A DNA stretch of 64,000 nt. It comes from Coraliomargarita sp. GTDB taxonomy: Bacteria > Verrucomicrobiota > Verrucomicrobiia > Opitutales > Coraliomargaritaceae. Positions within the stretch are counted from its first letter, which is position 1. Every line of letters begins with the position of its first letter. Location: contig OZ244160.1 in assembly GCA_965216325.1 (NCBI GenBank), positions 511,809 to 575,808 on the forward strand. The letters are read 5' to 3'. Shown here piece after piece: positions 38,564 through 42,367 of this stretch. Both the position numbers and the translations under genes were made by a program. The notes beneath the pieces are model-generated. The model searched no databases and was not told where the DNA came from. It worked only from the letters and a program-made list of their open reading frames with translations.

Positions 38564-38564
38564 G

Positions 38565-40470
38565 GTGTGCCGAGCATGCGCTCGATGTAAAAGTGGTTAA
38601 AGTCCGCTATAGTAAGAACCTAATCATAAAATGAAAGAACTATTACCAGATGCCAAGGGCGTTGTCGTGAGGCAGGGTCTGAAGGAAGGCTATGGGAAAG
38701 CTGCGAGCTGATGAACAAAAACTGCATAGAAGGCCGACGTGGTCTGGTGAGCTGGCACCACACAGCGAAACCGCTAGGTTCAGCCACGCAGGTAAATGCA
38801 GCAGTTGTGCAGCGGAGCATCGAGTGCTTACCTCGGGAGGCCTCAGCGAGTGGCATGGGTTGGCTTAAAGGTGTCAATCAAGCCCATGCACCTGAGTCAG
38901 TAATGACACAGGCGGCACTGGTTGAGGAGTCAGCAGCGAGCATAGTAGTCATGGAACCGCGAGCCATGAGTAGGTCGATAGGCCGAAGAGCATGGAGGTC
39001 TCGAACGTGATGAAGGCTCAAACCGTATATGGGCAGTCCGACCCGCAGGCAGGTTCACCTCTCACTGGCACAGACCCGTGTCGAGAGTTGGGCGATGTTT
39101 GTGCAGGGAAGCATGGGGCTGCCGAGCAAGAACTACTGGAGTTGATGCTGGACCGCGCTAATCTGAACGCAGCTTGGCGGCGTGTGCGCAGCAACGGTGG
39201 AGCTTCTGGCATCGACGGTATGTCGATCGAGGACTTTCTGCCGTTTGCGCGCGAGCACTGGTCGCGGATCGAGACTCAACTGAAAGAGGGAACCTACCAG
39301 CCAGCCGCGGTGCGCCGCGTCTGGATACCGAAGGACAATGGGGAGAAGCGCCCACTGGGCATCCCCACGGTGTTGGATCGTGTGATCCAGCAAGCCATCG
39401 CTCAGGTAATTGCGCCGATCTTTGAGGCACAGTTCAGTGAGCACAGCTTCGGCTTTCGTCCAGAACGCCGAGCTCATGACGCAGTCAAGTCGATCCAAAG
39501 CGCAGCCGCCAAAGGTCACGTGTACGCGGTCGATTGTGACCTGAAGTCATTCTTCGACACGGTCGATCATCGTGAATTGATGCAGCGTCTAGCGCGCCGG
39601 ATCAAAGACGGGCGCGTGTTGCGCCTGATCTACCGCTACCTGAAAGCAGGCATCCGCTTGCCCGATGGCAACACCGAGGCAACCGCCGAGGGGGTGCCAC
39701 AGGGGGGACCGCTCAGTCCGCTACTGGCCAATATCATGCTCGATGACCTCGACCATGAACTCGAACAACGCGGGCACCGTTTCGCACGCTACGCCGACGA
39801 TTTTGTTATCGTCGTCCAAAGCAAGCGAGCGGCTGAGCGCGTGATGCACAGCATCAGTGGCTTCATCGAAGCGAAGCTCAAACTGATCGTGAATCGCGAG
39901 AAAACGAAGGCGGGTCGGCTGACACAGTGCAGCTTCCTCGGATTCGTGATCTCGCCCAAGCGTATCCGCTGCTTGGATACCAAACTGCACACGTTCAAGA
40001 AGACCATCCGTCAAATCACCTGTCGCAGTTGGGGCATCTCCATGGAGGAACGCCTCGAACGTCTACGACTGTATGTGAATGGCTGGCTGGGTTACTTCGC
40101 TATCGGTGTGCCGTTCAAGGATATCCGCAGCATGGATCAATGGCTACGAAGGCGTGTGCGCTTGTGCTACTGGAAACAGTGGCGTTTACCGCGCACGCGC
40201 TACCGCAAGCTACGCGCGCTTGGGATCAACCCGAAGACGATTAAGCAGGCTAGTCGTTGTCGAAAAGGCTACTGGCGCTGCAGCAAACTGCGAGTGGTCA
40301 GTATCGCGATGAACAACCAATGGCTCGCCGAACAAGGCTGCCCCTCAATCAAAGAACAGTGGCTCAAACTCTGCTATCCAAACGGATAGCCCTAACGGAA
40401 CCGCCGTGCTACGGAGCCGTATGGCCGGTGGTGTGGGGGCGGGAGTCAGTGATGGCTCCCGCTACCCGAT
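38565..40470 (+). mobile_element. Group II intron, copy 1 (class C / attC-targeting type), 1906 nt
   Basis: The 5' end is GTGTG and the 3' end is ..CGAT. An RT-maturase ORF lies in domain IV, with a domain V/VI-like region after the ORF. It is near-identical to 43145-45050. Confidence 0.8.
38992..40389 (+). CDS. Group II intron reverse transcriptase/maturase (no endonuclease domain)
   Basis: RT blocks are present (RVWIPKDNGEKRPLGIPTVLDRVIQQA, GVPQGGPLSPLLANI, RYADDFVIVV), followed by an X/maturase region (YVNGWLGYF). The start may be ATG 39010. Confidence 0.9.
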   Translation: MEVSNVMKAQTVYGQSDPQAGSPLTGTDPCRELGDVCAGKHGAAEQELLELMLDRANLNAAWRRVRSNGGASGIDGMSIEDFLPFAREHWSRIETQLKEGTYQPAAVRRVWIPKDNGEKRPLGIPTVLDRVIQQAIAQVIAPIFEAQFSEHSFGFRPERRAHDAVKSIQSAAAKGHVYAVDCDLKSFFDTVDHRELMQRLARRIKDGRVLRLIYRYLKAGIRLPDGNTEATAEGVPQGGPLSPLLANIMLDDLDHELEQRGHRFARYADDFVIVVQSKRAAERVMHSISGFIEAKLKLIVNREKTKAGRLTQCSFLGFVISPKRIRCLDTKLHTFKKTIRQITCRSWGISMEERLERLRLYVNGWLGYFAIGVPFKDIRSMDQWLRRRVRLCYWKQWRLPRTRYRKLRALGINPKTIKQASRCRKGYWRCSKLRVVSIAMNNQWLAEQGCPSIKEQWLKLCYPNG

Positions 40471-42367
40471 TATGCCCGGCATGTTGTTAAAGTTGTGAGG
40501 TGTAAGTCCTCTGTGAGTATGTCCAAAATAACAATTCAATCACTAGTGAAGCACAAGGGCAAAGTCGTGAGGCTATTGTCTGGAAGCAGTGTGGATCAAA
40601 GGCATGAGCCGATGCACAAAAACGGCATAGGAGGCGTGTGCAGTGGGATGAGCGGGCCCAGGATCGCGAAGTCCTCTTTTGGACGAACTGTATGCGTAAA
40701 TGTCGCGGTTGTGTGCCGAAGGTTTAACAACTTATCCGGGGAGGCCTCGGCCAGTGGCGTCAGTGAGCTTAAATGTGCTCGTCGTAGCTGCCGCAGCGGA
40801 TGCAGTGATGCATGCGTGATCATGGGCCGAGGAGTCAGCAAAGGGCATAGTAGCCGCGGAGACGAGCTTGTCAGTGGCAGGACGGACTCACGCAGCGGTG
40901 AAGGCCTGCAATACGTATGGCAAGCGGACTTGCCTCTGGAACCCACCCATAAACGCCGACCGGCGCGCGGGCACGAGGAACTGGAGCAACACAGCCGCTT
41001 GCAGCCGGAGCTAATGGAGGCGATCTTCAGTAGCTCCAACCTCGATGCGGCGTATCGCCGCGTCAAAGCCAATGGTGGTGCCGCTGGTGTGGATGGCGTG
41101 AGTCTGAGCAAATTTACGCTGTGGTTTCGACTGCGGCGTGATCGCTTGCTGCGCCGTCTGCATCTAGGTAACTACCGTCCGAGTCCGGTTCGCCGGACTT
41201 ACATTGCCAAGTCGAACGGGAACAGGCGCCCTCTGGGTATCCCAACTGTGTTCGACCGAATCGTGCAACAAGCGATTCATCAAGTGCTCTGTCCGTTATT
41301 GGATCCGAGCTTTAGTGTCCACAGCTACGGTTTCCGTCCGAACTGTCGTGGCCACGACGCGGTGCGCCGCATCATGACTACGAACAAGGAAGGCTACCGC
41401 TGGGCAGTGGACATCGACCTGAAGAGCTTTTTCGACAAGGTCCCGCAAGCGCGTGCGTTGGAAGCACTACGCGAGCGTCTCGGTGGGGATGGTCCCGTCG
41501 TGCGCTTGATTAAGCGCTATCTGCAAGCGGGCTACGTCGAACTGGGCAGCTTCAAAGCCACACCCGAAGGCATGCCGCAAGGTGGACCGCTCTCGCCGCT
41601 GCTGTCCAATCTGGTGCTGGATGCGCTGGACAAGGAATTGGAGCAGCGCGGGCATCGCTTCGTCCGCTATGCCGACGACTTCGTGGTGTTGGTCAAAAGC
41701 GAACGCGCCGCACAGCGCGTGTTCGCGAGCCTATGTCGTTTCATTGAGAAGCGACTCGGTCTGGAAGTGAACCGCGACAAGAGTGCGGTGCGTCCGATTC
41801 GTGAGCTGAGCTATCTCGGCTTCAGTTTTCGATTGGGCAAGATTGCGGTCAGCGAAGCTTCGCTGGCCGAGTTCAACTACCGTCTCAAGCAATACACCCG
41901 TCGTAACTGGAGTGTGAGCATGGAATATCGTCTGTATCAGATCCGCCAATACGTGCGGGGCTGGATGGGCTACTTCGGACTCAGTGAAAACTCCAGTTTA
42001 TGGATCTGGATTGACCGCTGGCTTCGCAGGCGAGTTCGCATGTGCTACTGGCGCATGTGGAAACGCCCGCGACGTCGCTATCTCAATCTGGTGAAAATTG
42101 GCTCCAATAGTAAGTTTGCTGGTGGCTTTGCTAAAAGCTCAAAGGGCTACTGGCGTCTGGCTCAAGCGCTGGGCACACAAACGGCAATGAGCAATCAATG
42201 GCTAGAGGAACAAGGCCTGATCAACATCAGGCAACAATGGTGGAGTTTAAAGCTCCTGCGTATAACCGCCTTAAAACAGACTGCGTAACACTGTGATCAG
42301 TCTGGCTGCGGACCCGCACGGCAGGTGGTGTGAGAGCCGGGGGACTTAGTGCCCTCGGCTACTCGAT
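40471..42367 (+). mobile_element. Group II intron 3 (divergent relative of copies 1 and 2), directly abutting the 3' end of copy 1
   Basis: It is collinear with copy 1 in RNA blocks (GTAAGTCCTCTGTGAGTATG, AAGGGCAAAGTCGTGAGGC, GGAGGCCTCGGCCAGTGGC). The 3' end is ..GGCTACTCGAT. The 5' end reads TATGCC, which becomes GTATGCC if G38564 is counted. Confidence 0.7.
41014..42288 (+). CDS. Group II intron reverse transcriptase/maturase (second type)
   Basis: Contains RTYIAKSNGNRRPLGIPTVFDRIVQQA, GMPQGGPLSPLLSNL, RYADDFVVLV and YVRGWMGYF. The start is uncertain (ATG 41014 or upstream). The 597-aa track ORF includes intron RNA sequence. Confidence 0.85.
   Translation: MEAIFSSSNLDAAYRRVKANGGAAGVDGVSLSKFTLWFRLRRDRLLRRLHLGNYRPSPVRRTYIAKSNGNRRPLGIPTVFDRIVQQAIHQVLCPLLDPSFSVHSYGFRPNCRGHDAVRRIMTTNKEGYRWAVDIDLKSFFDKVPQARALEALRERLGGDGPVVRLIKRYLQAGYVELGSFKATPEGMPQGGPLSPLLSNLVLDALDKELEQRGHRFVRYADDFVVLVKSERAAQRVFASLCRFIEKRLGLEVNRDKSAVRPIRELSYLGFSFRLGKIAVSEASLAEFNYRLKQYTRRNWSVSMEYRLYQIRQYVRGWMGYFGLSENSSLWIWIDRWLRRRVRMCYWRMWKRPRRRYLNLVKIGSNSKFAGGFAKSSKGYWRLAQALGTQTAMSNQWLEEQGLINIRQQWWSLKLLRITALKQTA

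Follow-up and report, generated by a model that had tools for sequence, protein, structure and literature searches.

Group II introns of class C (IIC) include the group IIC-attC introns, which occupy the bottom strand of the attC sites of integron cassettes, antisense to the cassettes, at TTGT/T in R'' (PMC7923331, PMC3001079). Terminator-type IIC introns such as B.h.I1 and GsI-IIC are targeted by a stem-loop together with an intron-binding site 1 (IBS1) of 3–4 bp (PMC4424553). Twintrons, in which one mobile group II intron is inserted in another, are known from bacteria and archaea, as TeI3 in TeI4 of Thermosynechococcus, the nested introns of Methanosarcina and Tery_4732 of Trichodesmium (PMC2882425, PMC4424553, PMC4649490). 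Bacterial twintrons and IIC-attC introns are both already known, and a literature search returned no paper joining the two beyond general reviews. Here, a stretch of 64,000 nucleotides of Coraliomargarita sp. DNA (contig OZ244160.1, positions 511,809–575,808; hereafter the window) was analyzed, in which two group IIC introns occupy a single attC site, named site A. Very probably they constitute a structural twintron, with a complete intron (copy 1) located between nucleotides 1 and 2 of a second, divergent intron (B). Hereafter, copy-type designates the lineage of copy 1 and copy 2, a further intron of the window, and B-type the lineage of the second, outer intron.

Both introns resemble the described group IIC-attC introns (S.ma.I2 and the aadA1 attC intron) in their class C intron-encoded protein (IEP) devoid of endonuclease, their small ribozyme and their use of the attC bottom strand, with a short IBS1 and a one-nucleotide IBS3 next to a hairpin. 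Copy-type introns use the register GT|T, identical to the published TTGT/T (PMC7923331), whereas B-type introns insert one base upstream, at G|TT. The published register was also read in the aadA1 attC of the class 1 integron of pVIM_Pse-KSS435, GAATTGT|GTACGCC..CCCGAT|TAGAC, whose intron ends in CTACCCGAT. Further differences are an IEP identity of only ~49% (pairwise comparison only) to a plasmid-borne class 1 integron intron, and a B-type domain V (DV) base of CAGUCUG, in contrast to the copy-type, class C CCGCCG. The host differs as well, being apparently a Puniceicoccaceae-like verrucomicrobium, to go by the names of relatives. With terminator-type IIC introns the two share targeting by a stem-loop and a short IBS1, and the GsI-IIC reverse transcriptase (RT) is the closest structural relative of both IEPs, but the hairpin used here is the attC bottom strand and not a terminator. 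As in known twintrons, one mobile group II intron stands within another in an intergenic or non-essential place, the inner one being apparently younger and more uniform. In those twintrons, however, the homing site of the inner intron belongs to the outer one itself (domain IV or its open reading frame (ORF), or domain I (DI)), whereas the target here would be the 5' exon of the outer intron (attC hairpin and IBS1) plus its first two bases, which accounts for a position between nucleotides 1 and 2. Also unlike known twintrons, the nesting would stem from two lineages with registers one base apart on a shared host site. What is new is the position of the inner intron, its cause in offset registers on a shared host hairpin, and a B lineage with the G|TT register.

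Two group IIC introns in one attC site

Copy 1 is complete at both termini, from GTGTGCC at 38565 to ..GCTACCCGAT at 40470, and G38564 joined to 40471–42367 gives a native B-type sequence. As read, the remainder of B starts TATGCCCGGCATG / TATGCCCGG at 40471 (TATGCC..CTACTCGAT) and closes ..GGCTACTCGAT at 42367, where TTCTACC follows. The whole insert in site A amounts to 3804 nt, and its flanks rejoin as CGACTGG+TTCTACC. This product matches CGACTGGTT in sites C and D of the window, as well as CGACTGG|TTCTCC around the B-type relative L220, in line with the spacing proposed in an earlier note on this DNA, and it also agrees with GAAC of the opposite attC arm at 38501–38510. The boundaries of the insert cannot be shifted, its first base being G and its last T, next to a G on the 5' side and a T on the 3' side. 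On direct reading the two arms of site A are complementary, GTTC..CAGA of the 3' part facing TCTG..GAAC at 38501–38510, and the reconstructed empty form contains a hairpin in the DNA fold, with the architecture of sites C and D and of the arrays of relatives. The coordinates previously assigned to copy 1, G38564, the second intron and sites C and D were all exact on re-reading. The elements of the locus are as follows.

38501–38563, + strand: attC site A, 5' part (bottom strand), read from the sequence; arm TCTGCCGAAC, central hairpin GAGCGATTAGTG-GGCGCAGCA-CACTAGTTGCTC, then AATGCGACTGG
38557–38563, + strand: CGACTGG, in which CUGG (38560–38563) is the IBS1 of intron B
38564, + strand: G, read as G1 of outer intron B; doubles as base -1 in the 5' exon of copy 1
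38565–40470, + strand: copy 1, read as the inner intron; group IIC, 1906 nt, GUGUG..CCCGAU
38757–38760, + strand: exon-binding site 1 (EBS1) of copy 1, ACCA; its DV lies at ~40400–40432 and its domain VI (DVI) at ~40434–40468, with the bulged A at 40464 (DV/DVI fold)
38992–40389, + strand: IEP of copy 1, 465 aa, RT and maturase, YADD, without endonuclease domain
40471–42367, + strand: outer intron B, nt 2–1898, UAUGCC..CUACUCGAU
40658–40661, + strand: EBS1 of B, CCAG; its DV lies at ~42296–42329 and its DVI at ~42331–42365, with the bulged A at 42361
nt 6–10 and 267–271 of B: DI closing helix, CCCGG with CCGGG
41014–42288, + strand: IEP of B, likely start ATG at 41014, MEAIFSSSNLDAAYRRVK.., 424 aa, RT and maturase, YADD
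42368–42380, + strand: attC site A, 3' part, TTCTACCAGACAG; the first T is the IBS3 of B
42760–42815, + strand: attC site D, unoccupied, ..GCTCGACTGGTTGGCATCC.., with CGACTGGTTGGCA at 42792
43145–45050, + strand: copy 2 in attC site C, junctions CGACTGGT..TGGGT; reference for the normal copy-type register
site C: GCCAAC..GAGGGG-TAATCACTG-GGCGCAGCA-CAGTGATTG-ACCCTC..GTTGGG

Copy 1 and B are both bacterial group IIC introns. Each of the three introns of the window gave a full match to RF02001 of Rfam (126.6, 126.6 and 116.1 bits for copy 1, copy 2 and B, respectively), and B additionally matched RF01998 above threshold, with 47.9 bits. Copy 1 differs from copy 2 at 8 of 1906 nt. Copy 1 and B, with 56% nucleotide and 48% protein identity, are collinear from end to end, as already noticed and now seen in a MAFFT alignment of the three introns, where TATGCC of B faces positions 2–7 of GTGTGCC. 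An open RT and maturase ORF is present in all three. The IEPs of copy 1 and B contain RVT_1 and GIIM as their only Pfam domains, carry the YADD motif, match TIGR04416 and lack an endonuclease domain. Their best match in the PDB was the GsI-IIC RT of Geobacillus (6ar1; E = 4e-125 for copy 1 and 4e-108 for B), followed by 7uim, a group II intron RT/maturase of 427 aa (E = 2e-102 and 4e-93), LtrA and the TeI4h RT ranking far behind. When the last 76 nt of each intron are folded, DV forms a hairpin and DVI carries one bulged A, as expected of a six-domain ribozyme of this class. The intron ends are GUGUG..AU for copy 1 and G+UAUG..AU for B, the consensus being GUGYG..AY. In both lineages the EBS1–IBS1 pairing is short (4 bp), and a hairpin lies upstream at every site; in class C such a DNA stem-loop takes the place of IBS2. 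In class C, CGC replaces AGC at the DV catalytic triad; the copy-type DV base, CCGCCG..CGGUGG, contains CGC, its registers being those of minimum free energy (MFE) folds and not of a curated model.

The B-type DV base reads CAGUCUG..CAGGUGG in MFE registers, which is AGU-like with A opposite G, and it is kept in all B-type relatives folded (window 42296–42329, L081, L084 and L085). The reading frame of the B IEP is open from 40495 to 42288, ~170 codons ahead of ATG 41014 and across DI–DIII, so that gene callers report products of 591–599 aa in the B lineage (P0249, P0003 and P0005). Likewise, in copy-type relatives they place a 131-aa ORF, which overlaps the ribozyme, ahead of the IEP.

The native 5' end of intron B and the two insertion registers

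In the window, the base ahead of TATGCC is the last T of copy 1, and G38564 stands directly 5' of copy 1. The IEP of B has relatives in public data with 96, 84, 79, 77 and 76% identity. In every B-type relative a G directly precedes TATGCC (7 loci, at least 4 attC contexts; L081, L088, L085–87, L083/84 and L220), and the sequence upstream of this G differs between loci, the B-type 5' flanks being the following.

L084a: ..ccgtcttgG
L084b and L083, Coraliomargarita algicola: ..ccgccttgG
L085–87: ..caccgtcttgG
L088: ctggG
L220: ..gcgactggG
L081: gG (the contig shows the last exon base only)

The L085 contig also holds an empty attC, CGACTTGTTAGGGC, with a single G, whereas occupied sites read CTTG-G-TATGCC; since the occupied sites have one G more, the extra G belongs to the B-type intron. 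Together, the G+TATGCC of the relatives and the single G of the empty attC show GUAUGCC to be the native 5' end of B and point to G38564 as its stranded first base. The native 5' end of relatives was the comparison on which the earlier note had staked its choice of G38564, and it came out in favour of that choice. B and the stand-alone intron of L081 are 92.6% identical over 1897 nt and have the same 5' GUAUGCC. The DI closing helix starts at nt 6 in both lineages, as CCCGG/CCGGG in B, with a compensatory CUCGG/CCGAG in L088, and as CCGAG/CUCGG in copy-type introns; the usual 5' tail of five nucleotides thus exists in B only if G38564 is counted. GTGAG near 40494 was considered as an alternative 5' boundary and rejected, homology to relatives and to copy 1 extending to 40471.

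The idea that GUAUG might impair the outer intron did not survive comparison. All B-type relatives have GUAUG, A3 is found in 25 of 45 related introns, and a clinical class 1 integron intron starts with GUACG. A 5' end of the form GUAYG is normal in the clade of B. A genome-contig search with the B IEP gave only relatives of ≤52% identity, which bear on the 5' ends of the clade and not on the native end of B. Among the 45 related introns, mutual information, used to look for an epsilon' partner of position 3, linked position 3 of B to position 266 (window 40473 and 40735), A3 occurring with U266 in 22 of 25 introns and G3 with C266 in 18 of 20. Position 266 was the one Watson–Crick-compatible column and directly precedes the 3' strand of the DI closing helix. 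A tertiary contact is conceivable, but other columns follow the same split, and the pair may reflect nothing more than shared ancestry.

The B-type register is G|TT, with a 3' flank starting with TT in 7 of 8 distinct sites. Copy-type introns use GT|T, which was read in copy 2 and in eight relative loci (6 distinct 5' flanks), with T at -1 throughout. These loci correspond to a 74%-identical relative found in ten contigs, eight of which have a readable 5' junction; all eight read GACTGGT|GTGTG, and a single T followed by variable bases was found at all ten 3' flanks. Copy 1, at CGACTGGN|T, occupies the register of copy 2, as had been proposed, and of the eight relative loci as well. No other copy-type intron has G at -1, an oddity that is explained if G38564 is the first base of B.

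In the Rfam alignment, copy 1 has a DId3-type hairpin loop, GCACCACA, whose ACCA pairs with the IBS1 UGGU, and the homologous four bases of B, CCAG, pair with CUGG of the exon ending at 38563. Within the B lineage, loops with ..CCCAGG.. go with a CUGG exon (window and L088) and loops with ..CCAAGG.. with CUUG (L084 and L085; CAAG/CUUG), and this covariation confirms the identity of EBS1. L081 has the same loop as B of the window, its pairing exon being read no further than the last base. In L220 (76% IEP identity; 3529–4010), the EBS1 loop carries an insertion of ~30 nt (GGGCCCCCATCTTCGCGCGAGGCTACGGCGGACAGGCAGGAT), and CCAG is not evident though the exon is CUGG. The metagenome contigs L085, L086 and L087 (ENA) carry the same B-type intron and 5' attC flank, followed by three different 3' flanks, one of which starts with A and not T, as if the 3' side of the intron had been rearranged, by way of cassettes or of the intron itself.

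Order of events and alternative explanations

From the comparison with relatives, a two-step origin is very probable. A B-type intron with the ends GUAUGCC..CUCGAU would first have reached site A, by retrohoming to the attC bottom strand at CGACTGG|TTCTACC, and a copy-type intron would later have inserted at its own register, CTGGN|T, one base further 3' and hence between G1 and U2 of B. The occupied site would have remained a target, its attC hairpin being intact, IBS1 keeping three of four bases (UGG) and B itself supplying the U/T at +1. The only cost would be the change of T to G at -1, a G.A mismatch with the EBS1 ACCA. B is taken to have come first because at least three copies of the copy-type in the genome are nearly identical, while the source contig encodes only one B-type protein of this cluster; judged by its sequences, the copy-type lineage is young, recently mobile and multi-copy in the source genome. 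Since the GUAUG pentanucleotide is interrupted, B would fold and splice only after excision of copy 1, and precise excision would join G38564 to U40471 and rebuild GUAUG. Splicing is thus expected to be sequential, inner before outer. Neither splice serves a host reading frame, as both introns are antisense to the cassette ORFs. The claim that copy 1 lies one nucleotide inside a second group II intron is, at the structural level, supported by relatives, by the empty attC and by the flanks.

Several observations weigh against the nested arrangement. The EBS1 covariation fits equally well a shifted pairing of CCCAG with CUGGG, in which the G would be exon. As EBS1 alone does not fix the register, the latter is based on the empty-site comparison, copy-type homology, the universal G1 and the DI closing helix. 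Copy 1 had to accept an IBS1 mismatch at -1, beside the splice site, and no other copy-type site shows such a mismatch. The case is a single instance, the search of 102 related loci and of IMG/VR (0 matches) having found no second nested or abutting pair. Among the 120 matches listed for junction CGATTATGCYCGGCATG in metagenome contigs, only chance 17-mers in unrelated genes appeared, the pattern being too short for that collection. A scan of the + strand upstream of the pair gave no promoter-like signal exceeding shuffled background. Finally, the splices are deduced from DNA, and the junctions are as read in the assembly. The converse event would also be predicted, in which a copy-type intron is already in place and a B-type intron inserts one base ahead of it, leaving a one-nucleotide 'exon'; its junction (B, then T, then copy-type) had 0 matches in IMG/VR and was found in none of the related loci.

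Three other origins of the locus were weighed, which taken together are unlikely. The two introns could stand in tandem: G38564 would be an exon base of attC, with copy 1 inserted at CGACTGGG|TTCTACC and B then at the junction of copy 1 and exon, losing its first nucleotide, or else B came first and its G1 was deleted. The shifted pairing of CCCAG with CUGGG, if G38564 is exon, is compatible with such an arrangement, and the hairpin that a IIC intron reads could conceivably be provided by copy 1 through its DVI stem-loop. An attC allele CGACTGGGTTCTACC in a related strain would speak for it, and empty attC sites of the array reading CGACTGGGTT are not expected under nesting; but the attC sites of the array and of relatives read CGACTGGTT, and a GGGTT allele was seen nowhere among them. 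Moreover, every other copy-type site has T at -1 and no B-type relative lacks G1. A tandem would require both an unusual base at -1 and the loss of a single 5' base at a precise junction, two rare events where nesting requires one, and we regard the tandem as improbable.

An exchange between attC sites or intron copies, homologous or integrase-mediated, could have produced the pair in place of retrohoming of copy 1 into B, and the three 3' flanks that accompany one 5' flank in L085, L086 and L087 are signs of rearrangement around introns in relatives. Yet copy 1 ends exactly at an intron terminus on either side, two introns of 56% identity are too dissimilar to recombine homologously at the junction, and the crossover made by IntI is expected in the other arm of attC, not at the position of copy 1, making such an exchange highly improbable. 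That the assembler joined introns of two different attC sites is hardly credible either. Such introns are indeed multi-copy repeats (at least three copy-type copies), and most metagenomic contigs that carry them break at intron ends (~1.9–2.5 kb). However, the junctions share no long repeat (copy 1 and B are 56% identical, with a shared string of 7 nt at the 5' junction), the IEPs lie on one contig of 3.06 Mb, and the join is precise to the base, restoring both a native intron end (G + TATGCC) and attC, which is unexpected of a random chimera. The insertion of copy 1 between the first two nucleotides of B is accordingly retained as the preferred explanation.

The cassette array and the meaning of the nesting

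The introns lie antisense to a run of small minus-strand ORFs separated by imperfect palindromes with ends like RYYYAAC..GTTRRRY. This layout corresponds to an integron cassette array viewed along the attC bottom strand, the sites being recognized by palindrome and fold. No integrase gene (intI) was found among the window ORFs tested, and the array may be a CALIN (attC cluster without neighbouring integrase). Genes of the region include:

34322–35692: DDE_Tnp_1_4 transposase gene, at the edge of the cassette region
37956–38494, minus strand: Phd/YoeB toxin-antitoxin pair, in the cassette directly adjoining the attC that bears the two introns
42456–42782 and 42819–43072, minus strand: unannotatable ORFs

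The same 3.06 Mb source contig encodes one more variant of the copy-type IEP, the third (P0247, which differs from copy 1 by Y214H), indicating at least one further insertion site outside the window. In Coraliomargarita algicola (CP138858.1, ~5.339–5.350 Mb; L083/L084), two attC sites next to each other hold B-type introns that are identical; their array also contains a Phd/YoeB cassette and an IS110 transposase and ends at an opposite-strand gene for a 471-aa Phage_integrase/SAM_4 protein (tyrosine recombinase).

The general picture of group II introns and of integrons is unchanged by these findings. They add a second lineage targeting attC, found in Coraliomargarita-like genomes and metagenomes and distinguished by its G|TT register, GUAUG end and unusual DV base. 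Annotators of integrons or introns would mis-call B as 5'-truncated. The locus offers a natural test case for the weight of IBS1 position -1 in IIC retrohoming and splicing, and for the rescue by splicing of an intron split after its first nucleotide. The target of IIC introns is minimal and built on a hairpin, which would allow a second intron to enter an occupied site even where the outer intron contains no homing site. It is conceivable, if doubtful, that occupation by one IIC-attC lineage does not protect an attC from the other, and that the pair works as a twintron spliced in sequence, the resident being mobile only if the invader is accurately excised. If so, the locus would represent retroelement competition, or hyper-parasitism, for a host recombination site, and introns may repeatedly become stacked in this way in large cassette arrays of the environment.

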